Positions 1 to 64,000 are shown, counted from the stretch's first letter. The stretch: 64,000 nucleotides of DNA from Leucoraja erinacea (GCF_028641065.1 NC_073403.1:4898001-4962000); one strand, 5' to 3'. Made by a program: numbers and translations. The notes: a model not told the origin generated them from the letters alone.

Positions 1-283
1 TGTTACAAGGACCTCAAAAATACTAATAGAAGATGACAGCCAAAGATGATGTCTCCGACCATTTGAATGTGAACTGTGTGCATTGTTTCTTTTCACTGTA
101 TAGCACACATATGCGGTATTAAAATATGTGAGCAAGGAAGGACAGTAAACAAGTATAACCTTTCACCTTAAAGAGAACACTGTGAAAACAACTAAAGTTA
201 GTCCTGTAGGAAGGATGCTGATTTGCACCGAAGATAGACACAAAAGCTGGGTCGGGCAACATCTCTGGAGAAAAGGAATAGGT

Positions 284-311
284 GACGTTTCGGGTCGAGG
301 CCCATCTTCAG
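284..311 (-). ncRNA. Minimal hammerhead ribozyme-like core (PLE type)
   Basis: Minus strand gt-CTGAAGA-T-GGGCCTCGACCC-GAAAC-GTC-ac, with a GUC cleavage triplet and a 2-bp stem I. Confidence 0.5.
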
Positions 312-2465: not shown

Positions 2466-3679
2466 TACCCCCACCGTCAAGTTAGGCAGACCCGTAGGGA
2501 CCCCAGCATGTTCTAATCAAAGATACTCTTTGATCTTTTGTTCTAATTTCTATGTCAGAGGGAGAAGAGGAGGGAAGAGACAGTAACCCTAAGATTTTTG
2601 CCTCCATCACAGTGAGGAGTGCCTGGTGAACTCACTGTGGTGGATGTTAATTTGTGTTTATTGTGTGTTTTGTTGTTTATTATTACATGTATGGCTGCAG
2701 GCAACGACATTTCGTTCTCTGAATGACAAATAAAGGATCTAAGTAAGTCATGAGATCACTTCAAAACAAAACATCCAGTTGGGAAGGTATTGTACATAAC
2801 TGCAACAAGGCAAAGGATTACCTCATGAAATTGATAGAAAAGTTAGAGAAACTCTTGCCCACAGTAGGGGAATCGAGAACCAGAGGACATTGGGTGGTGG
2901 TGGGTGTATGGAACAAACTGTGGGCGAAGGTAGTTGAGGCAGGTCCTACCTCAAAGTTTAAGAAACGGTTAGACAGGTAGGTATATGAAGATACCACACA
3001 AATAGTTGGAATAACTCAGCGGGTCAGACGGAATCTCTGGAGAAGAGGAATAGGTGATGTTTTGGGTCGAGACCCTTCTTCAGACAGTCTGGGGAAAGGG
3101 AAACGAGAGATATAGACAGTGATTTGGAGAGGTATATAGAACAAATGAATGAAAGATATGTTAAAAAAAAGTAACAAATGAATGAAATATATGCATTCCT
3201 TTCTCCACAGATGCTGTCTGACCCGCTGAGTTACTCCAGCGTTTTGTGCCTATCTTAGGTTTAAACCAGCATCTGCAGTTTCTTCCTAGACAGGTACATG
3301 GAGAGGACAAATGAAGACAGGTGGGACTATTGTAGATGGGACATGTTGCCCGTTGTGGGCAAATTGGGTTTATTAAGTATATTCAGCACTTTTTTGTTTT
3401 TTTTCAAATTTCCGGACTTGCAATATTTTAAATTATTGTGTCCTTCAAATGTAACTTGTTATAACAAAACAGATCCTGTTTTTCAATGAATTGGTTTCAT
3501 GGTCACTGATGGCCACTGATATTTCATATCTGTATTGTTTTTAAACACGATTATGGACATTGTTACCAGTATTTGAAATCCAGGCTATTTTTAAACGGAA
3601 TACAAATTCTCAAATTGCCTTGATGGTATTGGAACTCACATTTGGTACACTGTCAATTTGGGGGTTTGGAATATTGAGA

Positions 3680-4670
3680 AACAAGGAACTACAGATGTTG
3701 GTTTACAAGAAAAGACACAAAGTACGAGGATAACTCAGTGGGTCAGGCAGCATCTATGGAGAACATGGATAGATTATGTTTTGGCTCCAGACATTGTGGT
3801 GGGGAGTAGTGAGAAAGCTGGAAAAGAAGTGGGGGCAGGACAAAGCCTGGTGAGTAATAGGTGGATGCAGATGAGGGGGGGTTTAATTGACAGATGGTGG
3901 GACAAAGGCTAGAACTGAAGTGACAAGAGATGTGGCATAAGTAGGAAAAGGTGTGAGATGGAGAAATGGGTGAAAATTTGGGTGGGGCATAGTGATAAAT
4001 GGAGTGATGGGGGAAGCAGGGGAGGGTTGTTTGTGAGTTAGTTCCCTAAAATTGGAGAATTCAATGTTCATATCATTAGGTATCAGATTCCTAAGTAAAA
4101 TATGAGGTGTTGTTCCTCCAGTTTGCAAGTGACCTCACTCTGGCATGGAGGAGGACAGAAAGGTCAGTATGAATGAATACGTTATATTTTATTGTCACAT
4201 GTGATAAGTCACTGTGAAATTCTTTGCTTGCATACCCAAGGTATACAAATAGTCACCACATAAAGGGCACGTAGAAAATTACAAAGTATCCATTCCAGGC
4301 CCCCCTTTATGGGATCTATTTATGACAGCAGGATAAAGAAAGATGACATCCCAGATGTCCTGGGATGGAAAACCTCATCTTGGGAGCAGATGCGGCGAAG
4401 ATGTAGAAATTGAGACTAGGGGATAGCGTCTTTGCAAGAGACAGTGTGGGAGGAGATGTGGTCCAGATGACTGTGGGAGTTGGTGGTCTGCAGTCGATAG
4501 TCTGTCGCTTGTGATGGAGACAGAGAGATCAAGAAAGGAGAGAGAGGTGTCAGAGATAGTCCAAGTGAATTTGAGGGCAGGGTGGAAGTTGGGAGTAAAG
4601 TTAATGAAATCAACAGGTTCTGCACAGGTGCAGGAAGCAATTCCGATGCAACGTCATCAATGCAGGGAAA
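3680..4670 (-). mobile_element. Decayed Penelope-like element (RT C-terminus, GIY-YIG end, 3' terminal repeat)
   Basis: Minus-strand translation gives CIDD (decayed YIDD, ~4655-4665), HLDHISSHTVSCKDAIP*SQFLHLRRICSQDEVF (PLE RT thumb) and LIPNDMNIEFSNF (PLE endonuclease end), followed by the AAGGAACT(G/A)CAGATG terminal repeat. Confidence 0.75.
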
Positions 4671-7600
4671 GGAACAGGATGATAGGGTTCATGGAATAAA
4701 TATGTGTGCACTCCATACCCTTCTCTTTGTCTTTACATGATGCAGACCAAGAAACAGGCAGGGAACCAAACCATTATCACGTTGGACATTGTGCTGAACT
4801 ATCTGGGTGAATTCTTGATTATTTTTAAATGATAATTCATAAAACAAAATAGAATCACTTTAGAAATAGAATCACTTCCAAATTTAGGAAAGACTGAATT
4901 TTGATTCTAATAACATTAATTTAATTTAATCATGTTTAAAGTTACTGGAGTGGTTCTCGGTAATGGCTGCTGAGAAAGATCCATGTAGAAATACTCAACC
5001 CAATCAATACCCATTCATTCGATCAATAACCTTTACTGGTCTAAAACATCAACATAAATTAAATGAATAGAATCACTCAAAGTCAATTGACATTTATAAA
5101 ATTTGTTTTAACCTTCTACTTGTAACAATGAATAAATATTGAGCATTAAGGTTTACAGTTGGGGTTAAATAATCCAATATTTGACAAGCTATGGCAGTGG
5201 AGAAAAATGCTACATGTCATGTAACAGTATTGAGACAGAAACTGACAGACTAAGGAAGGATTAAAATTAAAGATTATTATTTGATTAGAGTACATAGAAA
5301 CAAAGAGGGGAGGGTTTAAGAAGAAATTCCTGACTTAAAAGTCTAAAGAGCTGAATGAGTGGCTGCCAATTAAGAATTAAGAGAATTTAATTGCCATACG
5401 GTATGTAGCCACAGAGCAATGAAAATCGTACCTGCAGCAGCTTAAAAGAACAGTCCGAAGAAGGGTCTGATAATGGCAGGGAAGAAACGTCACCCATTCC
5501 TTCTCTCCAGAAATGCTGTCTGTCCCGCTGAGTTACTCCAGCATTTTGTGTCTACCCAGATGAATATAATAATCAAAAATCTTCAATAAATTCACATTTG
5601 TTATACTATTGTAAAAGAAAAACAAAGTCCATAGAGCAACCAAACACACAGACCAGAGACGATCAAAATTGGTGAGGTTTGGGTCTTGTAGTGTTGATGA
5701 GCCTGATGTTTCCTGGGAAGAAGCTGTTCATGAAACTGTGCTCACAGTTTTCAGACTACAGTGACTTCTTCCTGATGGTAGTAATGAAATGATAGCATGG
5801 CCAGGGTTGGCTGGGTCTCCGATGATATTGGCTGCTCTTTGAATGGGGGAAAGAACCCTTTGGTGGTGGGATGGTCAGTACTTGTGATGGATTAGGTATA
5901 CAGTATATATTAAAAATAGATAGACACTTAATGCTGGAGAAACTCAGTGGGACAGGCAGCATCTTGGGAGAGATCCCATTCCTTCTCTCAGAGATGCCTC
6001 CTGTTCCACTGAGTTACTCCAGCATTTTGTGTCTGTCTTTCGTGTAAACCAGCATCTGCTGTTCCTTCCTACAGATATGAAAAATGGTTTGATATTGATT
6101 TATCGTTTTCACTTGTACTTAAGTACAGTTGAAAAACATTTTTTGTGTGCTATCCAGGTATATCAACCATCTTCATCCGCAGGTGCACCACGCTGTCGGA
6201 TTGCATCACAGCTTGGTTCAGGAACAGTTCAGCCATGACCGCAAGTAATTGCAGAGATTTGTAGATGTAGCCCAATCTATCAAATAGACCACACTCCCCA
6301 CCAATGACTCCATCTACACAACGCTGCTTCTGGAAAGCTGGGACATAATCAAAGACTTGTCCAACCCAGTTCATTCTTTCTACTCAATGTTCTGGAGTAA
6401 CTCAGCAGGTCAGTCAGCATCTCAGGAGAACATGGATAGGTGACTTCTCGGGTCAAGACCCTTCTTCATACTTTCATCCCCCGGCTCCTGTCAGGAAAAG
6501 GTTCAGAAGCTTGAAAGCTCACACTCCAAGACTCAGTAAGAGCCTGTTATCAGGATTTTGAATGGTTCTTCCATAAGATAGGGTACTGTCAAATTCTCCT
6601 CCACCCCATTGCAGCCATTGGACTTTGTGTATGGAACTGGTGTGTTACAATGCTGAGACCGATATTCTGCACTCCGTGTCTTCCCCTTTGCTCTCCCGAT
6701 TGTATTTATTTATAGTATTATCTGATCTGATCAGATGGCATGCAAAACAAAACCTTTCACTGTATTTCAATACATATGACAATAATAAACCTAAACAATC
6801 AAACCATGTTCGAGTACAACCGGAAGTATAAAAAGAGAAAGGAAATAGAGTGCAGAATATAGTAATACAGCCACAGAGAAAGCACAGATTTTTTTTAAAT
6901 GCAAGCGCCCAAACAACGTAGATTGTAAGATCAGGAATACATCCTTAAACTAATGCGAAGTCATGTCAGGAGCCTGATAATGGCAGGGAAGAGGCTGATC
7001 TTGATTCTGGTGGCATGTGGCTTCCAAACTTTTCATCTTTTGTCTGGCAGGAGTGGGGAGAAGAGGGAATGGCAGAGATGTGGGTGGTCCCCGATTATGT
7101 TGGCTGCTTTCCCAAGGCAGCACAGAGTATAGACAGAGTCAATGAGGTGGGGAGGGAGGATGGTTTGTGTGAAAGACTGGGCTGTGTCCACAACTCTGCA
7201 ATTTCCTGCGCTCTTGGGTGGAACAGTTACCAAACCAAGCTGTCTGACACACGGTGAATAAAGAAATAACAATTAGAGGGCCTGCTGTAAAAATCATCAG
7301 GCTGGCTTTTATTTTTAGTGGACTATTAATTATCACAGTTGTAGCAGAAACTTGGACAATTTAATTGCTAGTTTATTAACAATGCGGGGTCCATAAAGCA
7401 GGCTGACACGTGCATTATCTCTGTGAAGTGAATGTTGTGGTGAACATACACTTAAATTACAGAGTGTATTATATATAATTGTTTTGGGGCTGTTGATTAC
7501 TTCCAGCCTGGGCAGAGAAAGAACTAATTTTCAGCTTTGAGCACAAGAAGATGTCAAAGAAGTTCCAGAAGTCAGGTGAAGAATCTGTGAAAGTACAGCA

Positions 7601-17794: not shown

Positions 17795-18127
17795 GTAAGT
17801 CCAGAAACACAATGAAGTGCAGATGCAGGAATCTTAAGCAAAACACAAAGTGCTGGAGGAACTCAGTGGCCCAGGCAGCATCTGTGGATGGAACGGGCAG
17901 ATTGATGTTTGGGTTGGGACCCTTTTTCAGTCCTGATCCAAAAAGTCAGTACATTTCCTCCACAGATATTCATAAGTTAAAGGAGAAGAATTAGGCCATT
18001 TGGCCTATCAAGTCTACTCTGACATTCAAGCATGACTGCTCTATCTTTCCCTCTCAACCCCATTCACGTGCCTGCTGACCATAATCCCTGACACCCGTAG
18101 TAACCAAGAATCTGTCAATCTGTGCCT

Positions 18128-19483: not shown

Positions 19484-19736
19484 ATGGAGCGAAGGAAATA
19501 GGCAACGTTTCGGGTCGAAACCCTTCCGGGTTTCGGCCCGAAATGTTACCTATTTCCTATAGTGGAGATTGTTCAACTCTTTGCATGGAGCGAAGGAAAT
19601 AGGCAACGTTTCGGGTCGAAACCCTTCTGGGTTTCGGCCCGAAACGTTACCTATTTCCTATAGTGGAGATTGTTCAACTCTTTGCATGGAGCGAAGGAAA
19701 TGGTCAACGTTTCGGGTCGAAACCCTATCTTCAGAC
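19484..19736. repeat. 101-bp tandem duplication (~2.5 copies) of a fold-back element plus flank
   Basis: ATGGAGCGAAGGAAAT... restarts at 19484, 19585 and 19686. Confidence 0.85.
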
Positions 19737-22483: not shown

Positions 22484-22796
22484 GTAGGTGTCCCGATTCC
22501 TGACAGCTTCTGCTGTTTAACTCAGCGGGGCGGGACAGGCAGCATCTCTGGAGAGAAGGCATGGGACCCCTTCTTGAGACTTAAAACGTCGCCAACTCCT
22601 TCCTTCAATCCAGAGATGCTGCCTGTCCCGCTGAGTTACTCCAGCATTTAGTGTCTATCTTCGGTTTACAGTTCCTTCTGAACCATCAAATTCTACTTGT
22701 GCTCTCCATTCAACTGTTTTGTTTCAAATACTTCATGTGTTTAGATTCTGATTTATTCGGGGAAGGGAATTAACTCAGCCCATCTTATTTTTACAG

Positions 22797-23802: not shown

Positions 23803-24356
23803 GAGGAATAAGTTCATCAAACCGAGGGGGGAAACAACAGCACAGATTGGGACTGTAGCACTGCTGCCTGAGTGAGGGGAATTGGTGTCTGAAGATGAAA
23901 AATGTCGCCACTTGTTATTCATATCCTGTATTTAATTTTACTTAATATTTCTGGTATCAGTGTCAAAGATCTCATTCTATATTGCTGTTGGTGGCAACTT
24001 TGTGTGTTGTTGAGACAGAAAAAACTACAGATGCTAAAACACGGAGAGTGGAGTAACTCAGTGGATCCGGCTGCATCTGGGGGTGGGGGGAGGGGGGTGG
24101 AATGGACAAGTGATGTTTCAGGTTGGGACTCTGCACCCTGAAACTTCATCTGTTCATTTCCCTTCGCAGATGCCGCCTGACCGGCTGTGAATACCTACAG
24201 TACTTTCATTATTTTACTGTATTGTTGCAATTATATATCTTTCTCCCAGTCTTTACCTGGGGGTTAAAGTTTGAGAGGATACAAGGAGGCAGAGGAAGGA
24301 GGAATGGGTGAAGGGAGAGTGGAGGAAATTGATCAATTTGTTATATATTCCTAAAA

Positions 24357-24633: not shown

Positions 24634-25855
24634 GGTGTGTTGAAAACAATCCAGAAGAGTTTTGAGTTTTTCACGGCGTTCGGTCACTTTAAGTAATGGA
24701 GAGTTTCCAGTCTGCATTGAGTCTTTTACCACAATGAAACAGGCCCTTTGGCCCGACTAACCCATGCCGACCAAGATGTCCCATCAAATGGTTTCATTTG
24801 TTAATAGTCCTCTTCGCCATGTCTCACTTTCTTGTAGTTCATAAAACCAACTTCAGGCTTCACGGCAGATCATTTTACGTAACTGCCTCTAAGAGCTGAT
24901 CAGAGCCAAATGTGGATTGTGGGCCAGTTTTGTCCTGAGGTTTATTTAAGTTCACGATAGCCTATAAGTATTTATCAGTTTTATTTTTAAGGGGCCCTGA
25001 CCTGCAGCGTCACCTATCCAGAGACGCTGCCAGACCTGCTGAATTACTCTGGCACTTTGTCTTTTTGTAAATTCTCACTGGATTGTACAGTTGTGCAGGA
25101 CTGTGCAGGATTGTAGTTTAACACCTTACACCTTGGTTTTTCTCCCACCCTCATTCAGACCTAACACTTTGTCTCCTTGATCTTCATGCAAAGAACTTTA
25201 ACTTGTTATAGAGAGTAATACCCACTGTACAGTTCTCAATCCAAGTGCATAAACACAGGTCTAAGGTGATGTTTTAGTACAGGGTGCTGCTGTACTGTCA
25301 TTGCGATGTATATCCAAGGCCACATCTAACATATATTGAAGAATAGCAGAGCCGTCTAGTATTAATCCTTCAATCATCATGACGGAAATAGATTTCAAGA
25401 TTCAGTTGGTGGGGAGTTACTGTGTGCAAAATAGCCGACACTTTCTAAAACAGTGAGTACACGGCAACAAGATGCACTCACGCCACACGTCCTTCCTTTC
25501 TGGCAAGGTAACTGTTATACATTCTCTTGGGTGGAAGCTTACGATCGGATATTGCTTCTGTCAAAGTAGATTCTCCTGTTTCTGTAGAGTACCCCAAAAC
25601 ATTCTCATACACACCTGCAGCAAGATTGAACAACGTACCTCGGTGACTGCCAATCACCACCCCCCCCGGACACTTATTATTATTTATTCAAATCATTTGC
25701 TATGTCGCTCTTCCAGGGAGATGCTAAATGCATTTTGTTGTCTCTGTACTGTACGCTGACAATGACAATTAAAATTGAATCTGAATCTGAATCTGAATCT
25801 GAAGAGACAGTCAAGGTGCAGGTCGACTAACAAAATACAAAGTTCTGGAGTAACT

Positions 25856-25883
25856 CTGAAGAAGGGTTTCGGCCCGAAACGTT
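25856..25883 (+). ncRNA. Minimal type I hammerhead ribozyme-like core (PLE type)
   Basis: CTGAAGA-A-GGGTTTCGGCCC (stem II)-GAAAC-GTT, with palindromic AACGTT stem III. Activity not demonstrated. Confidence 0.55.
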
Positions 25884-26521
25884 GCCTATTTCCTTCGCTC
25901 CATAGATGCTGCTGCACCCGCTGAGTTTCTCCAGCACTTTTGTCTACTCTGGAGTAACTCAATGGGTCAGACAGCATCTGCAGAAGAATGGACATTTTGG
26001 GTCAGGACCTTTCAAGATTTGATCTGATTTATGATCAACCCATTGCATTTTAATTAGTTTGAGTGACTTTTACCAGATCGTTCCAACTCAGTTTAGTTTA
26101 GAGACACAGCGCGGAAACAGGCCCTTTGGCCCAGCGAGTCCCCGCCGACCAGCGATGCCCACACATTAACACTATCCTACACACACTAGGGACAATTTAC
26201 TATTTTACCAAGCCAATTAGCCTACAAACCTGTACGTTTTTGGAGTTGCTCTCAGTTCAACTGAACACTTGCATTGTGGACACAAATGTCTGCAAAGGAA
26301 TAGCTGGAAAGGTTTGCAAGGCTCTTAAGCAATTTCAGACAGGATTAAATGATTTTTTTTTCCCCCCAACAGCCTGTGTAATTAACTGAATGGCTTCTGT
26401 ACTGAGATCTCGACAAATGATCGCGACAAATCTGGTGCACTCTCCCATCATGGGTCTATTTGCAAAGAATGAGGCAGCACAAGAATCATGCGTTGTGTAA
26501 ATTTTCTGCTATCAGCAAATT

Positions 26522-26527
26522 TTTATT
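26522..26527 (-). terminator. UBE2Z: Candidate distal UBE2Z poly(A) signal, implying a ~5.7 kb 3' UTR
   Basis: TTTATT on + (AATAAA on -) at the end of a long, mostly unique UTR-like stretch; an alternative signal lies at 29407-29412. Confidence 0.45.
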
Positions 26528-28398
26528 GCACCAAAAAATTCAATAGTTGCTTATATACAATATGAAACAAATAGACATCAGTGCTTTACATAGTTTGCAT
26601 ATTAGTTGTTAACCACAATTAGACAGTCCTTAACAGATGCAGGTGGTTAAATCGGTGTCATAACCCAGCCTGAGTAGCATTACTGGATCTCCTATCACCC
26701 AGGGACTAGCAAATAACCCCTTCCCTCATGTGTAGGAAGGAACTGTAGATTCTGGTTCACACCGAAGATAGATGCAAAATGCTGGAGTACCTCAGCGGTC
26801 TCTGGAGAAACGGAATAGGTGACTTTTCGGGTTGGAAAAAGGGTCTCGATTTGAAACGTCACCTATTCCTTTTCTCCAGACATACTGCCTGACCCCCTGA
26901 GATATTCCAGCATTTTGTGTCTTAATCTCCTCCCTCATGTTGCCTTGGATAATGTCCTTGCTCACCACTAACGGGCACTGGAATGTACTTTCCAGCTGGA
27001 GAATTTAAACCGCTGCATGGAGCCATGAAAAGCCGATGAATGGCCATTCCCCCAGATACATTTTCACCACATAAGGAAGCCGATCAGAGACAAAAACTAG
27101 TGCGGCACTGCCTGGCATCATAGACCGAGAGATCACCTGTATGTGTGGTCCATCCGGCCCAGGTTGCCATACAAGGAGTCACTGCAGTGAGATGTCGCTA
27201 ACACGAGTAGCCCAGGCTGAACAAACCAATGTGTGGAAAGGAACTGCCGATGCTGATTTATACCGAAGATAGACACAAAATGCTGGAGTAATTCAGAGGG
27301 TCAGGCAGCATCTCTGGAGAAAATCCGACAGGTGATGTTTTAGGGTCGGGACCGTTCTTTAGACTCTGAGGTACGAAGAAGGGTCCCGTCCCAAAACATC
27401 ACCCATCCTTTTTCTCCAGAGATGCTGCTTGACCTGCCGAGTTAGTCCAGCATTTTGTGTCAATCTTCTGAACGGACCAATCTTTAATTTACAAAAGGAG
27501 GTGCAAGCAGGTGTTTGACATGAAGTTCTCACTTCAGTATTTTCTCTCCCCACTCGTTGCCGAGATACCTGCACCCCATCCAGGTGCCTGCAGTGACTTG
27601 CAGGATGTTTGGACAAGAGTGGAGACGGCACAGTGCCTTTTCAGGCCAACGTACACAAACACTCGAGGCATTGGCGGAGGATGACGAGGTTGGGCAGACT
27701 GACTGAGGGCATCAGTGTCAACTCCCATCACAATCAGAACACTCAGTCCTGCACAACCCTGGGTCTCCCGACATTTACCTGGGGCTTGAAAACAAAAAGA
27801 AATCCAAATAATTGGTTTAAAGTGAAAAAAAAAAAGCATTTGATTAGTGCAGGGACGGAGCAAAGAAGACCAAACTCAAGTGGTCTTCTGTGGGAAAATT
27901 ATTTTTGACCAGAATCAGCTTCAAGGCTTGCCTGCCTGTACAAAAAACCCACTGGTTTCCAATCCTTGTGCAAGACAATACAGCAAAGACTTTCAGGGAG
28001 GTTCTGTGTGCTTCTTGGTTGGACCCTAACAAGTATGCTTCAGTCAATATACCCTTCGAACTACAACCTTCCTGCCACTAACAACATCATTTGCAATCCA
28101 GTGGATGTCTTTGCAAAGAAGAAAGTCAATTGATGCACTGTTTGTTTATCCTTCTGATGCTTTGCATCAGACAGTACTCATGCAAGCCTTTTGGGTTAGA
28201 AAGAATATCTTGGCAGCTAATTTCGGAACCACACTTTTCGATACATTTGGGATCCACGAGTATAATAAATTCCAGTTTCACAAACTACTGCTTTTAAAAT
28301 GGACAAATCAATCATGAAATTAACGACAGCCCAGTGGACCAGAGAGCTATTATCAATCTATTATCCATTCACCCATTTACAACATTCCAATAATCCTG

Positions 28399-28580
28399 TT
28401 CAAGAAGGAACTGCAGATGCTGGAAAAACTCAGCGGGTGTGGCAGCATCTATGGAGCGAAGGAAATAGGTAACGTTTCGGGGCCGAAACCCTTGAAGGGT
28501 TTCGGCCCGAAACGTTGCCTATTTCCTTCGCTCCATAGACGCTGCTGCACCCGCTGAGTTTCTCCAGCATTTTTGTCTAG
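28399..28580. mobile_element. Penelope-derived fold-back element with TSD
   Basis: Inverted arms centred at ~28495; flanking direct repeat TCCAATAATCCTG (28386-28398 and 28581-28593). Confidence 0.85.
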
Positions 28581-28861
28581 TCCAATAATCCTGGTGGCCA
28601 GAGGTCTGGTGGTCAGTCGTTAAACATGTTCACCTACTAACGGCCTTAAACGTATTGCATTACGTTTGGTTCAAACATTTCTTCCATTTCATTCCACATG
28701 ACCGCATCTGAGAGAAGTTTTGCCTGAATGTGTACCCCGGGTGGTTGAAGTTCAGAGGGGCAAACCTGCTTTGGATTAGGTGTCAGAATCTACACTGATC
28801 TGAGATCTCAGTTCTGGGTAGCAAAAGGTTTCCATTGCAAATGAACATTAATGATGAAAGG

Positions 28862-29051
28862 TTTACGAAGGAACTGCAGATGCCGGAACAATCGAAGGTA
28901 GACAAAAAACGCTGGAGAAACTCAGCGGGCGAGGCAGCATCTATGGAGCGAAGGAATGGGTGACGTTTCGGGGACCCGAAACGTCACCCATTCCTTCGCT
29001 CCATAGATGCTGCCTCACCCGCTGAGTTTCCCCAGCATTTCTGTCTACCTT
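28862..29051. mobile_element. Penelope-derived fold-back element with TSD
   Basis: Near-perfect inverted arms centred at ~28973, flanked by direct repeat TTAATGATGAAAGG (28848-28861 and 29052-29065). Confidence 0.85.
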
Positions 29052-32035
29052 TTAATGATGAAAGGGTTAGAACAACCCAGTAATAATTGTATATCTGTGT
29101 AATGTGAGCCAGTCTATGGACTGCAAAACAGTTCTCACATCCCTATCTTCCCTTATGGCACAATACTTTACTGTGTTGTGGGGGGGTTTGAAGCCTGAAG
29201 TGTACATGACATAGGTTTTAAAATGCGCACGCACAGGCACAGAGTAATGCATGTTGCCCAACAGCACCGTGAATGAAGGAACCCTGGACATCCCACCAGA
29301 AAGCAAACCGAGCCACTGAAGTGGTCTGGCACCAACTCACTCTTGAGAAACAAGGTGTTAGTCATCATGGTGAAATCGGACCAATTGTCTCAAAATATAA
29401 AGTGACTTTATTGTTCCATCAGATATCTATCAAAACCATTTGCTCACAGGAGCAAACCCTCGCACTGGCCTCGGCTATTAATTGCATTGAAAGTGCATAA
29501 TTACAAGAGCTGTGATCAATGTCCGTGGTCGTTATCTTGGATCGCTTTATAGGATGGAGAACTATTGCATAACACGACATGCCCACCGAACAATCACACA
29601 CTCGACTCCTGAGAGCAGCACACTCTCGCTGGTACAACAGGCAAGCGGCTGGAGGATCCCTCCTCATCATGCGACGGGGCAATTTCAAGCTGGGTGACCC
29701 AGGCACACACACACACACATCTTTTAAACCCGATCTTGCTGGAAAGTGCACAGGGGAGAAGAGTCTTTGCACATCGATCAGGAACAAAGGCAGTTTGGTG
29801 AATGTTTCCCCTTCCCCTTCCTCCTGTCACCTGGCAAACCAAAGGAGCCACTCTGGTGTCAACCAACCCAATGCAACCAACCATCAACGGCCCAGGACAC
29901 CTCTGGGGTCTTTGGGGGGGGGGAAAGGATTACTGTGCAAGAACTGAACTATTAACCGAGTTCCCTTTTTCCCCACAAACGTTGCCTAACCCGCTGAGTG
30001 TTTCAAGCAGTTGATATGTTTGCTTGTGGTCCATCTACTCAGGTCCAGTGGCAGAGAGCCAGCTCACCGAAGAGTTAAATTAAAAAATGGAGACATTATT
30101 TAGAGAAAAAGGAAATCCTGATTGCACCGTGATGTGACATGCTTCAAGATCCTGCCACAAACTGACAAAAAAACCCAGGATTCTATGTCTTCAACTTTTG
30201 AATGACACACGAGCAGGTCCCTACAGTACTCATCACCAGTCAAGCCCATAGATTAGTGTAACAAAGGATCCAAGGCAAATTCATTGGACTTGTTGAGGAA
30301 CACAGTGTATGGCCTTGTCCTCTGGACCACCAGAAACGGGATCCTTGGACAAACAAGGTAACACGGTCCATAGGCATCTACTCCACTCCATACATCAATA
30401 ACTCCATACCACAAAAGTATAATCTCTGGGTGGGATAGAAGAATAAAGCAACAAGCAGGCCACATGGAAAGTGTTTTGTTTTATCTCCTACTTGTTGTTG
30501 GTCACAGAGTACAAAACCAGGAGGACAGGATACTCGAACCCCAGGAATTTTACAGCCATTGGCCTGTCAGGGTTGATGTTTTACAAATGTTCTGTCTTGC
30601 TCGCACCTAGTTAGTTAATTCACCTGAGCAACAAATCCGAAATAGACACCAGAACTCAACTAAGGTGAAAGCTACTTTGAACCAGAAGGGACATTGTGGA
30701 TTGAGGAAGGATTTAACAGTCTAGTCTCCTAGATTGGATTTGAACTTGCATCGGAGAATGACAAAGTTATGATGGGAACGCAAAGAATCCAGGGCGTGGA
30801 GACGGGACTTCAGTAGCATAGTATGTAGGAGAAACTTTGAATAAAGATTTATATTTATCTCCAGTTTTAAGCCAGCCCAACTGTACATTAATGCATAAGA
30901 AATTAATTAGCTATGATCGCACATCATCTCCAGATATGGTCTGCAGAAACCTAACAGATCACCAGCCTTTTAAAGACAATAAAAGGAACAAGCAGGCAAT
31001 AGTGCTTCTTCAACAGGTTGTTACAACTGTTAACCGTGGGGCTTTTTTTGGATTCTAGTTCGATTTTCCAGCACACACTTCAAACAATCTTTCTCCTCGA
31101 CCTGGGTAACTGACTGCTCAACCAGTTACTCCACAAGACAATTTGCAGGCACCCAGTAGAGTTAACATTATTACACAACATGTGAGACTTGAAGCCAGAC
31201 TGTGATAAATTCACAGTTTTTAATACTTAAAATCTCGATATGTGGAAAAGGGTCAGGAATAAAGCTGTCAAACTACCATGAACATTAGACTAAATATTTC
31301 ACAATGCGTGGTTAGTCACGTACCACAAATTCCCTTTAAAAAAAATACATGCCTTTGGGTAGTTTGATAAGACAATTTGAATCGTATCGATTTACGTTAT
31401 TGATTGGTTAGGGGAGGGACCATAAGGAGCTACTTGTCACCAGTGCAGCCTCATGGAAACAAAACAAAACTGAAATGAAGTAAAAAATGTGGGATTACTG
31501 TAAATACTTACTTTAGTGGACAATCGAATGTCATTAATAGAAATGCCTGTAAAAGTGGCCTTTCAGTAAACTGTATTTTGCTGCCTTTGTTTGTGTTTAT
31601 CTGTTAGCAAGATCAAAGGGCCTTTGAAAAAGACTGAAGGAAGATTCTCTGTAAATGGAGTGGATTAATTCTGTAGGTTGTGCGGGAACACGTTAGCCCC
31701 AGGCTCTCTCGCCCCACCTGGTGAAGCTGCAAAAAACTGACTGAAGATGCAAATCCTGAAGCCATAAATACTTGGAACAACAACAGCCCAGAGGAAGTCA
31801 CCACCACAAACTGCTTTGCATGTGAATGTCACTTATGTAAAACACACAAAACGTCTGTCTGCTGGTTGTATTGGTCGGGATGAAGCACAAGGGTGACATT
31901 GTTGGGTAATCTGGGCATTGGAGCAACACTTTACAATGAAAGCAGGGCCCTGCCATTGAGGAGTATGGATTGGAGAGCTAAAATCTTAAAAAAAAAAATA
32001 TTATCATATATGATTCTGACCCAAGCCAATTCTCC

Positions 32036-32041
<6 letters not shown>

Positions 32042-32074
<33 letters not shown>

Positions 32075-32077
32075 CTA
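32042..32077. repeat. (CT)n microsatellite in the UBE2Z 3' UTR
   Basis: Direct inspection. Confidence 0.9.
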
Positions 32078-32243
32078 TCATTATAAAGCGAAAGCCAAGT
32101 GAAACAGGTGGCCCACAAAGATCCCTGACCTTTGGTCTATTTACAAAACCACACGAAGGGTCTCGCCCCTGGACCTGAGCTTGTGCCCAGCTTCCCTTAG
32201 ATCCTCACCACCACAGACACGGCCCGTCCCACAGTCTGTACCC

Positions 32244-32414
32244 TTAGGGGTTCGAGGTGCCCTGGCTGTCTTGCTCGTTTCCTGAGGAGCTGCTGTCAGA
32301 GTCTGGCTCTATCTCCTCCTCTTCGTTTTTCTTTTTCAATCGTTGCCGGGTGATCTGCAGCCGATTCAGTAGGGTCTGGTAATCAAAGTGACCGCGCCTC
32401 TCTCCAAACGGATC
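32244..32414 (-). CDS. UBE2Z: UBE2Z (USE1, UBA6-specific E2) exon 7, last coding exon
   Basis: ttgcag|[56 protein letters not shown]. Confidence 0.96.
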
Positions 32415-32964
32415 CTGCAAGGGCAAGAAGAAAATGGCCGCCTCTTTACGCTGAAATTGATTACTACCATTAACAAACACACACGCGCACACATACACGC
32501 ACACGCACGCGCACACACACACAATATACAATACGGTTTTATTTTTCACATTGCACATAAAGTGCAAGTGAAATGAATTTGCCAGCAGCGGTACAATGAT
32601 AAAGAACATACAATACACAATTAAAATTTAACACAGACACCCATCACAGCATTCATCACTGTGGTGAAAGGCACAAAATGCACACACACACACACACACA
32701 TGCAGGAAGGGAATGCAGACGCCAGTTTATACCGAAGATGCTGAAGTAACTCATCTTCACCGGGCAGCATCTCTGGAGAAAAGGAATAGGCATTCTGGTT
32801 GGGACCCTTCTTTAGACACGAAACGTCACCCATTCCTCTTCTCCAGAGATGCCGCCGCCTGACCCGCTGAGAGCTTAAGAGCCTTTTCGATAAGTAGATG
32901 GATATGCAGGGAGTGGGGAAATAGGATCATGTGCAGTTTAGATCAACCTGGAATCAATCATGTT

Positions 32965-33170
32965 CAAGAAGGAACTGCAGATGCTGGAAAATCGAAGGTA
33001 GACAAAATTGCTGGAGAAACTCAGCGGGTAAGGCAGCATCTATGGAGCGATGGAAATAGGCGACGTTTCGGGCCGAAACGCTTGAAGGGTTTCGGCCCGA
33101 AACGTTGCCTATTTCCTTCGCTCCATAGATGCTGCCGTACCCACTGAGTTTCTCCAGCAATTCTATCTAC
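32965..33170. mobile_element. Penelope-derived fold-back element with TSD
   Basis: Inverted arms; flanking 18-bp direct repeat CCTGGAATCAATCATGTT (32947-32964 and 33171-33188). Confidence 0.85.
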
Positions 33171-33870
33171 CCTGGAATCAATCATGTTTAGCATGGGCAT
33201 TGGGCCGAAGGGCCTGTTCCTATGCTCTACTGCTCTATGTTCCTAAGTAATTCGCAGAGAAAGTTCAGCAAATTTACCGACGACTTTGCAAGATGCATAA
33301 CTCCTTTCGACAAGCATGTGTGAAATCATGTGTATGGCATTAAATGTGAAGTGCTTTGCGTCCTCAATGACAATTTGAGGCATAAATTAAGGAGATTGGC
33401 TCAGAATGGAGAGATGACGACACAGTTGGGCTGCTTGTAAAACAACAATTAATCTGATTTGAAACATGCCAATGTTACATTTCTCTTTGTAGTGGTGCTA
33501 ATGTCAGCTTTTGACTGTCAAGTGGGAACAGATGAGTCAACCTGGATGTGTAATGCTTGGAGTACTGATGCATCATCGTTGACTTTGAAAGAATTTGGCA
33601 TTACTCTTAGTCAATAACCCCAATGGAATGATATCCCAGTAACTAATTAATAACAGATTCTGTAGAGGCAACAACATCAATCCAGTCCATGTGGAAGGTT
33701 GCTTCACAGAACAACTTTGTGAGGAGAATCCACAAGGAAGCGCCCTGCCCAAGTGCGGGGGGAAATGAAGAAGCAATATGTTTTTTTAAATGCTCCAGTC
33801 TGGGATCTAACAAAACCAATCAGCATGCCAGATATAATTAAAACAACGTATGTGGGTGTTCAATGCAAAG

Positions 33871-34097
33871 CAACGTGGAGGAAGGAACTGCAGATGCTGG
33901 TTTGAACCGAAGTTAGACACAAAATGCTGGAGTGACTCAGCGGGACAGGCAGCATCTCTGGAGAGAAGAATGGGTGACGTTTCAGATCGAGACAAGTCTT
34001 CAGACTGAAGAAGGGTCCCGACCCGAAATGTCACCCATTCCTTCTCTCCAGAGATGCTGCCTGTCTCGACGAGTTACTCCAGTATTTTGTGTCTATC
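33871..34097. mobile_element. Penelope-derived fold-back element retaining a hammerhead core
   Basis: Inverted arms with CTGAAGA-AGGGTCCCGACCC-GAAAT-GTC at 34005-34032; flanking TTCAATGCAAAG repeats (33859-33870 and 34098-34109). Confidence 0.8.
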
Positions 34098-34947
34098 TTC
34101 AATGCAAAGGAGATGGATTGGATTAGGTTGGATTATTGTTGTAACGTGTGCCAGAGTACAGTGAAAAGCTTTTGCTTTTTGTGGTAACCAATGAATTCAG
34201 ATCATACTATACATGAATACAATCAAGTCATACACAAGTTCTACAGCTAGCGCAGAGAAAAAATACCAGAGTGCAGAATATAGTTTACAGCATTGTAGCA
34301 TTACGTTTACAGAGAAAAACAGAATTTAAAAAATAAATTGTTAGTTTATTCCTTTATTTACTTTATAAGTTTATTACTGAGATATAGTGCAAAGCTTTTT
34401 GTTGCATGCTAGCCAGTCAGCGGGAAGGACAATACATTATTACAATCGAGCCATCCACAATGATTTGGAAAATAAATGGTTAAAGTTATTTTTGTACACT
34501 GATGCTGGATGTTGGATGAATGATGCTCAAGAAAATGAGGCTCTCTATAAGAGCACCCATTATGGCTGAATTAATCACCAACAAGGCTGGGAGGTACAGC
34601 TGATGCCTCACGGTGCCAGAGACCCAGGTTTGATCCTGATCTCGGGTACTGCCAGTGTGGCGTTCGCACGTTCTCACTATGACCATAGGATTTCCTCCGG
34701 CTGCTCTGGTTTTCTCCCACATCCCAAAGACGTGCCGGTTTGTAGGTAAATCGCCCCCAAATGTTCAGTGAGTGGATGGGAAAGTAAGATAGGAGAACTA
34801 GTACAAACAGGTGATTGAAGGTCAGGGTTTGACTCGGTGGACTGAAGGGGCTATTTACACGCTGCAATCAATCAACTGATTTCACCAATGGCACAGGAGA
34901 AAATCACATGTAGATATGAGTAACAAGATTGAGCAAAAAGATGTTAC

Positions 34948-39952: not shown

Positions 39953-40486
39953 TCTTGTGTTGTACTCTCTATGATTCTGTCTTTGCAAGGACAGCAAAGC
40001 AAAACGTAACTGCATATTCGCACATCCACTGTGCCAAACATCATAGCATTCTGCATCTCTTTATGAGGTGTGTCAATTGCTGATTTCTGCTGGTAAAATG
40101 GCTCAGCGGGTCAGGCAGCATCTCTGGAAAAAAAGGATGAGTGATGTTTTGAGTCGGAACCCATCTTCAGCCAGTCTGGAGACCAGTTCCAACTCGAAAC
40201 GTCACTCGTTCTTTTTCTCCAGAGATGCTGTCTGACCCGCTGAGTTACTCCAGCACTTTGTGTCTACCCTCAGTACAAACCAGCATCTGCAGTTCCTTCA
40301 TACGTTCATAAGTGATAGGAGCAGAATTAGGCCACTCTGCCCATCAAAGACCCTTCCTCAACATTAGGTAATTCTCTCAACTGGTTGCAGAGTTCAGCAT
40401 TCAGCCCTGCCTCAGCCTAGTGGGAGGCATTTCAACTTTACTCAGAAATATATGCACTGCATCTCCACCTGACTGTCAGTACTTAC

Positions 40487-45478: not shown

Positions 45479-46459
45479 GGCCCGAAAGGCCTGTCTCCAT
45501 GCTGTATGGCTATCTAATAATTCTACAGCATAAGAATGGGTAGATCCACATTATACCCATTGTTTCACAACTCTCCATCTCCCTGCACAGAATATTACCA
45601 AAGGGGTTAGTTCGCAATATTTTAATTCCACCAAATCCTCTGTTGCTTTAAAATATTCACACAGGACAAATCATAAAGCTCCAAATACCTTCATCAGAAC
45701 ATCTGCAAATGTAACTGCTGGCACTTTGTTAGCTAGCAACAGATATGAATGCTCATGACCGTAGGGAGTTTAGCAGGGAGTGGGCCTCCATCACAGAGAG
45801 GAGTAGGAAGTTGAAATAAACACCAACGTTTGTGTAAAAGCAGTATGCAAATAAAGTTGGCTTTTGAAAACAAAAGAAAAAGCGGGCTTAGGGAATGCTG
45901 GTGGAGGAAAAACCGAGTTGAAGGTACAATGAAAAGAGACACCGTAAATATACATTTAGTACGCGCACTGATGTGCATTAAAGTGAAACTGATAGACACT
46001 GGAGTAACTCAGTGAGACAGGCAGTATCTTTGGAGAGAAGGAATGGGTGATGTTTCGGCTCGAGACACTTCTTGAGACTTGAGACGTCACATTCCTTCTC
46101 TCCAGAGATACTACCTGACCCGCTGAGTTACTCCATCAATTAGTGTCTATCTTCGGTTTAATCAGGCATCTGCAGTTCCTTCCTGTACAAGTGAAACTGA
46201 TAGTTGTGTACGAGGGAGGCTGGGATTGAAAGGATCGCGGATGAAGGAAGTGATTGAGCTCAGGAGACTGCACCATGAACGTTCTCCTAGACCATTCTTG
46301 CTTTTTGCTCCTTACTGCACCCTGCTATCCTAAACATCCCCCCCCTCCCTCCATCTCACAGCGACCCCCAGAAGCCCCCGTCCTCTACACCCCCTGGATA
46401 TTGGGTTACTTCACTAACGCCCTTCCCCCACCCTTCTCCTGTGTCCCCCCTCTTCTCTC

Positions 46460-48000: not shown

Positions 48001-50052
48001 CGTGAACTATGCAGCAGCCTCGCCCCGCGTCTTGCGTCTGCCACACACCCAGGCTCTGCAGCAAATGGCGGACTTGAGCAAGGAAACACTGCAATGCCGG
48101 CACAATGAGATTCCCAGAATAGTGCAAAAGATAAAATGCTGGAAAAACCCAAGCAGACGCAGCCTGACCGACTAAGCTAATCTGTGTACATATTTACGAA
48201 CATTCCCAGATTTTTTGCTTTTATTGCAAATTTCTAGTACATGCATTTTTTTTTGTTTTAAAAATCACTGCTGAATGTAAATGGGTGCCTCTATATATCA
48301 CACACTGCGCTGTTGAGTCACGTCCTTATGGGAAGAGCAGGAAGTGGGGAATTATCCACGTTACATACGATGTGCAACACCAAATGTCGTTTGACCCAAC
48401 CAGCTCTTACTGCCAAGCACATTGCGTAAATATAGTTGGTCCTATCTCTATAACTCATTTGTTTAATCTAATCGTAAAATATATCTACGCCCTATACCTC
48501 GACTACACAAGAGAACAAGGTAAAGATAGACACAAAAAGCTGGAGTAACTCAGCGGGACAGGCAGCAGCTCTGGAGAGAAGGAATCGGTGACGTTACTCA
48601 ATATTCTGACTGATGAAGGACAATGTGCCAAAAGCCTTTTTGACCACTTAATCGATCTGCGACTCAACCTTCGAGGAAGCATGCACCTGCACTCCGAGAA
48701 CCCTCTGCTCCACAACACTCCCCAGAGGCCTACCATCCGTTGTATAGGTCTTGCAGGACTAATCCTTAATCTTTATCTGCATGGATCCTATTTCTGTCTT
48801 GCCCCCTTTAAAAAAAAAATTACTGCTGCTCTGATGCCCAATAGGCATTGCAATTCCACTCCATTTCCTTCTATCCTTTATAAATCCATCTCACCCCGAA
48901 CTGATCCATCCTCATCCGATTTTTCTTTAGCCGTCTCATTACATCCCACCCAGTCTTGTTTCAGTTCAGTTAATTGTCATGTGTACTGTGGTTATAATGA
49001 ACAGCTTTTGCTGCATGCTAACCAGTCAGCAGAAAGACTATACATGATTATAATCGAAGGTAGACAAAAGTGCTGGTGAAACTCAGCGGGTAGAGCAGCC
49101 TCTATGGAGCAAAGGAAATTCGGGCGAAACCCTGCCTATTTCCTTCGCTCCACCCGCTGAGTTTCTCCAGCACTTTTGTCTACCTTCAATTTTCCAGCAT
49201 CTGCAGTTCCTTCTTAAACATGATTATAATCGAGCTGTCCAGTGTGTTCACTAACGCCAAGCTTTATTAGACACCATTGTCCAGAAAGTTGAACTCGTGT
49301 GAATTGGATTTCCAATCACCTTTAAAATCTCCACCCAGTTTAACTCCTAGAAATGTTTATGCAAACCACTCATCCATAACCTCCCATATTATTGTCATAT
49401 GCTCTTTTACTAACTATACTTTTTGTTCATATTTCTTGGAGATGTTTCCTTGTGTAAGGACTTTGACATCGTCCCGTTTACATAGATTACCTGACCTTGA
49501 TGTTAACCTCTTGCTGAGTTACTCCATTATTGTGTGTCGATCTTTGGTGCAGCTACATATGTGGGAATGCTCCAAGAATAAGGGGTAGGCCATTTAGAAA
49601 GGAGATGAGGAAAAACGCTTTCACCTGGAGAGTTGTGAATCTGAGGAATTCTCTGCCTCAGAAGGCAGTGGAGGCCAATTCCCTGGATGCTTTTGAGAGT
49701 TAAATAGAGCTCTTAAAGATAGCGGAGTCATGGGATATGGGGAGAAGACAGGAACAGGGTTCTGAATGTGGATGATCGAAGGGCCGAAGGCCTACTTCAG
49801 CACCGACCGTCTATTATAAGCAAGCCACGATGGGGCCTGTAAAGGTACTGCCATGTTTGAAGTACATCTGTTACAGACACGTTCATGGAATCATCAAAAT
49901 GTGAAGAATAAAGTCAGTTAGCGAGCAGCCTCATCACCGAGCGTTATCAAATTTCTGGCTCCATATGATTACCACACTCCTCAGTCATGCACTGTTTCTG
50001 GACAGGACAATGATTCATTACTGACACACATTTTAGGAGTTGGTTTAACCAT

Positions 50053-54089: not shown

Positions 54090-54339
54090 GGTTAAACCTA
54101 CAGGAAAGAAGAAAGGTTACACACAATGTCTAAGATAGACAAACGTGCTGGAGAAGATGCTGCTGCACCCGCTGAGTTTCTCCAACACTTTTGTCTACCT
54201 TCGATTTTCCAGCATCTGCAGTTCCTTATTAAACACACAATGTCTATCTGACTCGCCCCTAATGGCCTGTACTATAACCGGCACTTTAATGCGCGGAGAT
54301 AAAGGAATAATGCGATTAAGGGGGTGAGGTGGGTGGGGG

Positions 54340-56856: not shown

Positions 56857-57110
56857 AAGTTCAAGTTCAAGTGAGTTTATTGTCATGTGTCCCTGTATAG
56901 GACAATGAAATTCTTGCTTTGCTTAAGCACACAGAAAATAGTAGGCATTTACTACAAAACAGATAAATCTGTCCATATACCATGATATAAATATATACAC
57001 ACATGAATAAATAAACTGGTAAAGTGCAAATAACAGAAAGTGGTTATTAATAATCAGTTTTGTCTGAGCCAGGTTTAATAGCCTGATGGCTGTGGGGAAG
57101 TAGCTATTCC
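56857..57110 (-). mobile_element. Rex1-type LINE 3' end in inverted orientation
   Basis: Minus strand NSYFPTAIRLLN, then 3' UTR, GACAATAAA and a (CTTGAA)n tail. Confidence 0.75.
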
Positions 57111-57146
57111 ACTGCCTGCTGTACCTGGGGGAGGGGAAAGCTTACA

Positions 57147-59154: not shown

Positions 59155-59371
59155 GAGAGATGCTGCCTGGCCTGTCAAGTTACTCCAGCATTTTGTGTGA
59201 ATTCTCAGATGCACAGTTTGTTTGATGCATAGACTGTGATATATATTTATATATCCACATTACCTTCTTATGGCAATGAAGAGAGCCATTCAGACAGGCA
59301 TGTCTATGCTTCTAAAGCAATCCCGTCAGTCCTATTCCCCCATTTATTTTTTCTGTAGCCTATTGGAATAG

Positions 59372-61766: not shown

Positions 61767-62019
61767 ATAAGCATCCATCATAGGAGCAGAGTTAGGCCAT
61801 TTGGCCCATCCTTGGAGCACAAGAGCCTGAGCAGTGATCTTCCAGACGTATAAAAAATCATGAGGAGAATAGATAGGATGAAAGCACAGAGTCTTTTACC
61901 CAGGGTGGGGCAATCAAGAACAAGAGGACATTGTTTTAAAGTGGGGAGATTTAAATAGGAACCTGAGGGGGCAACATTTTCACTCAGATTGGTGGATATA
62001 TGGAACGATTTGCCAGAGG

Positions 62020-62400
62020 ATAGACACAAAATGCTGGAGTAACTCAACGGGACAGGCAACATCTCTGGAGAGAAGGAATGGGTGACGTTTCGTGTTGAGA
62101 CCCTTCTTCAGACTGATGTCAGGGGAATGGGAGGTACATAGATAAGGAAGTGTATAGCTAAGGAAATGTAAGGTGTGAAAACAGGACAAAGGGAATGGAG
62201 ATCAAGGAAAATGTAGAATAGATCATTGTGAGTTGGGAGAAGGGAACAACGAAGCAAACTGAGATAAAATGTAGTCGGAGACAGTAAGATTGGTCGGTGA
62301 ACTGGGAAACGGGAGGGGATGGAAAGAGAGGGAAAGAAAAGGTTACAAAGTTTCTCCGACTACATTTTATCTCTGTTTGCTTTGTTGTTACTTCAAGTAA
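62020..62400 (-). mobile_element. Penelope-like 3' terminal region with hammerhead-like core
   Basis: Same terminal repeat family; minus strand reads CTGAAGA..GAAACGTC at ~62084-62112, adjoining a purine-rich PLE 3' segment. Confidence 0.6.
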
Positions 62401-63210: not shown

Positions 63211-64000
63211 GCACACTGGCACTTTCCTACACACTAGGGCCAATTTACAATAGCCAATGAACCTACTAACCTGTACGCCTTTGGAATGTGGGAGGCAACT
63301 ATTTCTGCGCTGTATCACTAAACTCTACATGGAGGAATTCTTCAAAGTGCGCAAAGCAGGATCTGGATTAAAGAGCTGGACTTTGCAGAATGGGGGAATC
63401 GTTTCGACTGACCTCTGCACCGTTGCCAGACCACTTCCTTTGCAGTTCCGTCACTGGCCAGACGGTGCCACATGCGACCTGTTAATGTAAAGACTGTTCA
63501 GTTACAACAGGAGCCAGGCAAGGTCCCAAAATCACAAGACCCAGAGGAACACTTAGCATGTCTCAGCTTACCCCGACCCAGACACTTTACCCTGTAAAAA
63601 GGTCTGATGAAATATGTCGACCCGAAACGTCATCTATCCATGTTCTCCAGAGATGTGGCCTGGCCTGCTGAGTTTACTCCTGCAGTTTGTGTCCTTTTCT
63701 GTATTAACCAGCATCTGCAGATCTTTCTTTCTATAACTTAACTGTGTATGTTTGTCTGTTCATTATTTCGGTTTAGGTTAATTATTGTCAAGTGTATCGA
63801 GAATCGGTGAAAAATGAGTCAGTCTGAAGAAGGGTCTCTACCAAAACGTCACCTATCCATATGACTCTTGTGTACTGCAAGGTGAGATATGATTTTACCA
63901 GATTATATGCAAAACAAATAATTTTGCTGTACTTAGGTACATGTGACAATGAAGTATAATTGTTGATTGATTGATTCTCCAAAGATGCTGCCTGACTCAT

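Follow-up and report, generated by a model that had tools for sequence, protein, structure and literature searches.

The 64,000-nucleotide stretch of the Leucoraja erinacea genome analysed here (GCF_028641065.1 NC_073403.1:4898001-4962000; hereafter, the window) contains many tiny insertions, most of them in decay, that derive from one end of a Penelope-like element (PLE) and are present as solitary arms and as head-to-head pairs forming hairpins. The repeat is probably the terminal repeat, comprising the end of the pseudo-long terminal repeat (pLTR) and a tail, of endonuclease-bearing, Zn-linker PLEs of cartilaginous fish, its short copies being products of PLE proteins acting one insertion at a time. 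On sequence grounds, it belongs among the PLE terminal repeats that carry a minimal hammerhead ribozyme, here with predicted cleavage. Positions within the repeat are numbered from the base following the predicted cleavage triplet (+1), which places C3 of CUGA at -28.

An iterated profile recovered 59 repeat arms in the window versus none in the reversed window. Together they occupy 4,080 bp, at a density of ~0.9 arms per kb, in agreement with the first-pass annotation, which had described one repeat in dozens of copies, many of them head to head. Among the 16 pairs of neighbours no more than 30 nt apart, 14 are head-to-head, two tail-to-tail and none direct; the head-to-head count compares with 5.4 expected and a maximum of 13 in 2,000 random placements. 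The two subfamilies previously recognized, GUC and GUU, both exist, but by eye at least four subtypes can be told apart. In a tree of the arms of at least 60 nt (40 of 59), the GUU group and an intermediate pair are strongly supported (100/98), whereas the remainder is poorly resolved.

The connection to PLEs comes from a 5'-truncated, decayed PLE open reading frame (ORF) on the minus strand (3679..4690) that ends in a copy of the repeat. Its reverse transcriptase (RT) C-terminal region (4335-4650) matches the closest relatives at 65-78%; the named homologues occur in Mobula hypostoma (79%) and in Stegostoma tigrinum (62%), and 55 of the 68 candidate homologues passed. An unrelated insert (~4180-4330), the source of which was not found within the window, interrupts the fragment between its RT and endonuclease parts. 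The last ~30 endonuclease codons (about 4050-4135), the match to which extends to about 4098, are followed by ~250 nt of pyrimidine-rich untranslated region (UTR) and then by the terminal repeat and tail (3679-3792), which represent a third subtype. The repeat had been proposed to cap a Penelope RT/GIY-YIG fragment, and the RT and the end of the endonuclease are indeed present, but the GIY-YIG motif itself has been deleted and the terminal copy lacks CUGAAGA. The fragment's own pieces gave no relevant Pfam match, so that the PLE identification rests on the homologues. Full-length relatives (query P0002) carry RVT_1 and GIY-YIG domains, the latter in five of the six scanned. A Cys linker between RT and endonuclease, deleted from the window copy, is seen in the sequences of close relatives; linkers of the CX2-5CxxC type mark the Neptune and Nematis clades (PMC8557442), and the putative Neptune/Nematis-type (Zn-linker) label is taken from these relatives, not from a tree. 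Three further arms (62021, 2996 and 19687) run into UTR-like sequence, and the pyrimidine-rich sequence upstream of the arm at 62016..62375 is presumably PLE 3' UTR, judging from composition and length, with no coding match. No other PLE coding pieces were found in the window with 202 protein queries, and short copies outnumber coding remnants 59:1. A lone 69% match to the PLE 3' UTR (3811-3950) lies at 16568-16698, where no adjoining terminal repeat was found.

The hairpins show the known signature of PLE insertion, in line with the earlier proposal that PLE machinery spreads the repeat. The set of 14 called pairs includes 2996/3195 (117 nt apart, with a UTR bridge) and excludes both 247/396, the arms of which lie 90 nt apart, and the complex pair located in the tandem at 19.5 kb. 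At a score cut-off of >=10, a target-site duplication (TSD) of 10-18 bp flanks the whole pair in eight of the 14, compared with four of 182 mismatched flank pairs; of the remaining pairs, two have degenerate TSD candidates and four have none. In all 14 pairs, exactly one arm carries a tail of ~35 nt (p=6e-5 against 0.5), by a threshold that 1% of random windows pass, and the outer ends are unequal throughout. The 3' ends of the 59 arms are bimodal: 21 fall at +60..73, none at +74..87 and 24 at +88..101, the other 14 being shorter (those of 25862 and 45996 were corrected by eye, and 63975 is cut by the window end). The motif CCAGCAT lies 10-16 nt before each 3' site, and in both folded consensuses a copy of it in the tail is predicted to pair with AGAUGCUG near +20. 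Partner arms have more derived bases in common than non-partners (0.027 versus 0.009 per site; 14 versus 168 comparisons), which would fit either a single template or subsequent conversion. At 45981-45995, 32947-32964 and 2970-2979/3287-3296, the TSD overlaps the repeat 3' end by ~4-6 bases, which suggests priming aided by short target-RNA pairing.

Before correction, the 5' ends are distributed over -45..-34 (3 arms), -33..-27 (20), -26..-20 (15), -19..-10 (9), -9..-1 (2), +1..+6 (5) and +7..+25 (5). After correction, in which eight ends were shifted by eye and four read-through arms were treated as long, 23 arms extend to -27 and 19 of these go no further than -33; the stop rate is 0.22 per nt at -33..-27, 0.07 at -26..-21 and 0.007-0.022 further downstream. 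We considered cleavage-defined 5' ends and rejected them: only five of 59 arms start at +1..+6, and the pile-up, at -33 to -27, precedes CUGA instead of coinciding with the cleavage site, so that self-cleavage does not define the arms. The same boundary is found in arms whose limits are fixed by a TSD or by a partner arm, independently of the test on flanks, in which none of 11 upstream flanks of short arms resembled any of four UTR samples; that test is weak, the UTR samples barely matching each other. The boundary bases are TCAGT, which we take to fit the initiator consensus, and two solo arms (247 and 11316) contain small direct repeats of the boundary region. We prefer to read the boundary as a putative transcription start site because the short arms share no upstream exon and because boundary repeats such as those at 247 and 11316 are what template jumping at an RNA end gives; an origin from spliced RNA is disfavoured by the same lack of a common upstream exon. 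In the D. virilis PLE, an intron ends just 5' of the hammerhead (PMC4209133), and transcription begins 46 bp before an intron of 75 bp (PMC2377424). Within the repeat, +5 to +19 are rich in pyrimidines and close with CAG, or with TAG in GUU copies, right before an ATG; this tract resembles a second splice acceptor 3' of the ribozyme, and the frames after the ATG vary by subtype. A conserved ORF start at this ATG, near +21, was not supported, as the reading frames disagree between consensuses.

The consensus core consists of CUGAAGA-A, a 4-bp helix II with a G-C closing pair, GAAA, C-G, U and then C or U. In all three subtype consensuses, helix II is GGGU/RCCC with G10.1-C11.1 closure and an unpaired base follows A9; the palindrome at 15.2-16.2, for helix III of the dimer, is ACGU. 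Helix I has 2 bp in the consensus and 4 bp at 63604 and is absent from predicted folds; upstream bases that would lengthen it at 38858 and 17841 are better read as inverted repeat fragments (weakly so at 38858). The earlier assignment to the PLE-type minimal hammerheads with a dimer palindrome fits the published consensus, in which the same elements recur: CUGANGA-H, G10.1-C11.1, helix II, GAAA, the C-G palindrome and NUH (PMC4209133, Fig. S3). The 2-bp helix I, a length that the figure also gives for Drosophila and Culex, and the 4-bp helix II place the repeat at the weak end of the range reported there, where helix I spans 2-6 bp and the hammerheads are weak as well (PMC4209133). The copies described in that study are likewise mostly solo and truncated, with opposite-strand neighbours; in the examined text of its Table S1 and Fig. 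S3, no cartilaginous fish appears. Of the five cores cited in the first-pass annotation, those at 25856, 284, 19706 and 63604 read as described, whereas 34005-34032 (+) reads GAAAT-GTC, its palindrome broken.

Few copies have kept this core. CUGANGA is retained in 10 of the 59 arms, all three boxes in seven, and the boxes together with helix II (at least three of four pairs) and the palindrome in four (284, 19706, 25856 and 62084); CUGAUGA occurs in one copy only, at 63604. The loose pattern CTGANGA-N(9-20)-GAAANNTH matches the window eight times, seven of them within the repeat, against 0.55 expected, and none of 100 shuffles reaches eight. An Rfam scan of the whole window yielded 31 matches at E<=10, none of them to a hammerhead family, these being sub-threshold microRNA-hairpin and similar matches, of which the microRNA ones merely reflect the hairpins. 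Across 24 core regions, the core structure is better paired than slid controls (76% versus 11-50%), but covariation shows no excess over shuffles (341 of 500 reach the observed percent paired). There is no sign of selection on the core in inserted copies, which appear to decay neutrally: 7.4% of core and 9.7% of body positions have decayed (p=0.35) in arms reaching -29, a choice of arms that favours the core. Between the three subtype consensuses, by contrast, the core differs at one of 11 positions (a CpG site; the sample is small) and the body at 31 of 103, and the remaining core-region changes affect loop II or the cleavage base or turn U-A into U-G, with pairing kept. Because the core is conserved between consensuses yet decays like the body among copies, master elements look constrained and copies do not; the covariation or enrichment that the annotation had asked for is absent among copies and weakly present between subfamily consensuses.

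Neither of the two consensuses folded is predicted to have the hammerhead as its lowest-energy structure, whether as a monomer, a dimer or a full leader. Helix II has a pairing probability of <=0.02 in the folded leaders, and in the GUU subtype its loop is predicted to pair with GAAAC; one hairpin folds at a predicted -151 kcal/mol with the core buried. Across the 14 called pairs, not one of the 28 arms combines an intact palindrome and helix II with both boxes, and the hairpins are very probably catalytically inactive. The ribozyme is probably a passenger in inserted copies; in the parent element, to judge from the literature, the two pLTRs probably form a dimer that cleaves weakly with the help of protein.

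In the mechanism that we propose, the endonuclease would make staggered nicks 10-18 bp apart, as the TSDs suggest, and the RT would prime internally at one of two RNA sites, ~+65 or ~+100, matching the bimodal 3' ends; internal priming has been demonstrated in vitro for an anole PLE (PMC11167929). In hairpins, both target strands would prime, one per site, leaving exactly the single tail that is seen. The RT would copy to the RNA 5' end, running off at about -31, and the two cDNA ends would be joined within the self-complementary hammerhead region. Nicking, two-site priming, run-off and joining would together produce the TSD, the single tail, the head-to-head orientation of the arms and the absence of CUGA from most apexes. 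CUGANGA would be mostly missing there because the junction formed downstream of it, not through decay; the earlier view of the hairpins as probably dead holds. We tentatively suggest that the short copies are run-off cDNAs of a PLE RNA leader starting ~3 bases 5' of CUGA, that one ribonucleoprotein may prime both strands asymmetrically, at opposite ends of the tail, each hairpin representing one twin-priming event, and that some lineages may self-copy on PLE enzymes without cleavage, among them one whose core is dead through the G5-to-C change.

Much of this has parallels in other PLEs. In the anole Poseidon element PAc, two RT start sites bound the tail, as the two 3' sites do here, and both target strands are extended; insertion proceeds without need for the hammerhead, no RNA ends are reported at the cut site, and the hammerhead requires its protein (PMC11167929). 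PAc differs in belonging to another clade (the relatives here have the Cys linker) and in that its ORF starts in helix II (PMC11167929). PLEs of the rotifer Adineta have inverted pLTRs with an optional one-sided tail, 8-10 bp TSDs and a palindromic junction (PMC3846280), and the inverted-pLTR architecture is described as general for PLEs (PMC8557442, PMC8969392). In L1 twin priming, too, both target strands prime and the inversion lies within one TSD. The L1 pieces come from different parts of the RNA, whereas here both arms repeat the same end.

Several observations weigh against the reading of the repeat and its copies given above. The TSD is below the cut-off in six of the 14 pairs, and of 25 arms treated as solos in the scan only 25856 and 54155 pass, 54155 being in fact part of a pair with a 22-nt arm. 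The test for shared variants is pseudo-replicated, and gene conversion could yield the same result. A single subtype is linked directly to coding sequence in the window. With regard to the 5' boundary, the three read-through arms score only 18-21 against other UTRs (null 95% = 21.5), and the reference used for calling ends itself stops at -31 to -39; TCAGT also resembles a splice acceptor, an RT pause would produce a similar pile-up, and the putative transcription start is argued from a motif and DNA ends. Finally, two apexes each recur exactly at two loci, in one case with shared derived changes.

These recurrences, which a self-copying hairpin would explain equally well, bear on an alternative that we consider unlikely, namely, that some hairpins or solo arms are master elements of a SINE-like (short interspersed element-like), non-autonomous family, the read-through RNA of which is copied in trans by PLE protein, with apex and polarity inherited and no ribozyme step. 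The pairs 22518-22678 and 45996-46188 agree in apex and polarity and in having the G5-to-C change, and the tree places their tail arms together (97/75); 28398-28580 and 32962-33170, each flanked by a separate TSD, have the same polarity and the same apex of one base. The excess of short copies over the one coding remnant also speaks for such masters, as does the sufficiency of pLTRs for trans mobilization in rotifers (PMC3846280). However, the apexes of all other pairs differ, and a junction of the 22518/45996 type occurs in opposite polarity at 32701-32871, which indicates that junctions can recur independently; the matching arms of 28398 and 32962 share no derived bases in the alignment, and the outer ends usually lie at both priming sites, an arrangement for which copying of a hairpin RNA gives no reason. 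No tRNA-like head was detected (ARAGORN predicted no genes, a weak result for decayed heads, and Rfam gave no tRNA match). On the evidence of one window, a one-off origin seems more likely than self-copying. Somewhat less likely still is snap-back, in which one tail-primed cDNA folds at the hammerhead hairpin, copies its own second arm and is trimmed by the endonuclease at the first site. It accounts for the one tail per pair and the shared variants, self-priming has been proposed for palindromic junctions (PMC3846280), and several junctions fall at GAC/GTC or helix II complementarity; but it requires the tail arm to be the longer one, whereas by eye the no-tail arm reaches further 5' in four of 16 pairs (2996, 22518, 26839 and 45996), and several apexes have a loop of only 0-1 base. 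Later deletion at the apex could blur this comparison of arm lengths.

The first-pass annotation favoured a retrozyme-like non-autonomous family. For a non-LTR retrozyme, dimeric hammerheads would cut tandem RNA into monomers to be circularized and reverse transcribed by rolling circle; retrozymes are defined by head-to-tail units with a complete hammerhead each and by circular RNA (PMC7229834; 10.64898/2026.07.22.740005). The repeat shares with metazoan non-LTR retrozymes its non-coding nature, relationship to pLTRs, type I hammerhead and probable mobilization by PLEs, and pLTR-derived retrozymes are reported in one chondrichthyan (10.64898/2026.07.22.740005). Yet copies here are solo or head-to-head and mostly incomplete, and the architecture already fails in this window, which makes this origin highly improbable. 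Direct neighbours are absent from the 16 close pairs, and the sole tandem array (19484-19726) has CUGA in its 5'-most unit only, followed by three GAAAC-GUU, so that no head-to-tail array has a complete ribozyme per unit; the array, the spacer of which has no source found in the window, may be a local duplication or a result of repeated template jumping. Furthermore, arm ends ignore the cut site and copies are not circularly permuted, and the short helix I, the low pairing probability of helix II and the similar decay of core and body also argue against it. A fold-back DNA transposon, such as a miniature inverted-repeat transposable element, without a PLE link would likewise be short and abundant with long inverted repeats, but we give it almost no credence: the outer ends are unequal in every pair, TSD length varies from 10 to 18 bp, solo arms have TSDs and the repeat terminates a PLE ORF.

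Table 1. Repeat arms, inverted pairs and neighbouring exons in the window
Feature	Coordinates (strand)	Subtype	Tail	TSD	Remarks
Solo 91-bp insertion	25857-25947; core 25856..25883 (+)	GUU	none		complete core, exact degenerate-core match; TSD in next row
Same insertion, with host copy	25844-26011	GUU		13 bp, 25844-25856/25948-25960	young arm within older copy of the same repeat
Solo arm	about 205-314; core 284..311 (-)	GUC	present		near-complete core
Core at 5' end of complex locus	19706..19734 (-)	GUU			complete; one extra base after CUGAAGA
Arm	62016..62375 (-); core 62084-62111		none		near-complete core; ~260 nt upstream pyrimidine-rich sequence
Solo arm	63601..63730 (+); core 63604-63631		present		CUGAUGA; 4-bp helix I; helix II broken
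Decayed PLE	3679..4690 (-)		present		RT part, insert, endonuclease end, UTR, tailed terminal repeat
Inverted pair	33871..34097	GUC	left only	12 bp, 33859-33870/34098-34109	both arms reach CUGA
Inverted pair	32962..33170	GUU	left	18-bp match, 32947/33171	apex as at 28398
Inverted pair	28398..28580	GUU	left	13 bp, 28386/28581	
Inverted pair	28861..29051	intermediate, GUC	left	14 exact bases, 28848/29052	apex in helix II
Inverted pair	26731..26930		left	10 bp, 26722/26931	
Inverted pair	27232..27467		left	degenerate 14 bp, 2 mismatches, below cut-off	
Inverted pair	45996..46188		right	15 bp, 45981/46189	apex and G5-to-C as at 22518
Inverted pair	22518..22678		right, partly deleted	none found	~35 nt 3' of EAP30-domain exon
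Inverted pair	49055..49217	GUU	right	16-19 bp match, 49039/49215	
Inverted pair	2980..3287		one arm	10 bp, 2970/3287	long no-tail arm ~110 nt into UTR; tail arm from +4
Inverted pair	5918..6074		right	weak (score 8)	whole core absent; arms from +11 and +2
Inverted pair, old	24023..24206		left	none found	
Inverted pair	32701..32871		left	none found	22518/45996-like junction, opposite polarity
Inverted pair	40088..40303		right	none found	5 derived bases common to arms
Additional inverted pair	54133..54232		one arm	14 bp, 54119/54233	22-nt no-tail arm plus tail arm
Additional inverted pair, old	17806..17967		(-) arm		tail arm (-) to about -30; short (+) arm -18 to +23
Tandem	19484..19726 (-)				101-bp unit, 2.4 copies, 97% identical; unit is small core fold-back plus unrelated spacer
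EAP30-domain exons	~17.6 and ~22.3 kb (+)				domain matches
UQ_con exons	39.2 and 40.5 kb (-)				ubiquitin-conjugating domain; domain matches

The window spans two convergent host genes, an EAP30-domain gene (14.1-22.5 kb, plus strand), which we take to be SNF8 or SNF8-like, and a UQ_con gene (32.2-47.3 kb, minus strand), presumably UBE2Z. The densest hairpin cluster, at 26.7-34.1 kb, surrounds their 3' ends, and the hairpins at 17806-17967 and 22518-22678 start ~10-35 nt 3' of splice donors of EAP30-domain exons. GC-rich islands lie at ~14-15, 47 and 54-55 kb, and a 53-bp GC-rich minisatellite (47282-47996) adjoins the presumed exon 1 of the UQ_con gene. Numerous remnants of long interspersed elements (LINEs) are scattered across the window. 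A second abundant repeat (752, 8357, 13158, 14792, 18849, 21912, 41014, 45401, 56477, 61676, 62914 and others) is a CR1/L2-like LINE 3' end, with coding remnants at 55.6, 60.9 and 45.0 kb, and resembles HER1/HE1 of sharks and rays. Another non-LTR retrotransposon at 57104-59200 (+) is unusually intact, with an open RT frame of 698 codons matching RVT_1 and ALKBH8_N. A 142-bp inverted repeat of a different family (59485-59977; 78% complementary, arms 209 nt apart) contains a 41-bp match to the PLE 3' UTR (59672-59712).

PLE terminal repeats with minimal hammerheads have been published, as have one-tailed inverted pLTRs, and the finding framed in these terms is ordinary. Common to these insertions and those described for endonuclease-bearing PLEs are head-to-head arrangement with 5' truncation, a 30-40 bp tail at one end, a variable TSD and a palindromic junction (PMC3846280, PMC8557442); unlike in those descriptions, the inserts here are mostly 90-320 bp, dense and sharply bounded beside the ribozyme. 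The formation of tandem and inverted PLE inserts is described as undefined (PMC8557442), and literature searches with thin coverage of subscription journals listed no paper describing this case. The value of the window lies in rules that can be counted: each hairpin has a single tail, 3' ends fall at two sites, and the 5' boundary lies beside the ribozyme rather than at its cut. The regularity of the hairpin ends hints at how a PLE copies itself, and ribozyme cleavage, we argue, does not set insert size. Genome-wide counts could tell twin priming, snap-back and self-copying hairpins apart. The hairpins at 17806-17967 and 22518-22678 would give rise to double-stranded RNA in pre-mRNA, with possible effects on ADAR editing or splicing. 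If the density seen here is representative, the genomes of sharks and rays would offer a very large natural data set on the mechanism of PLE transposition, as well as many intronic double-stranded RNAs.

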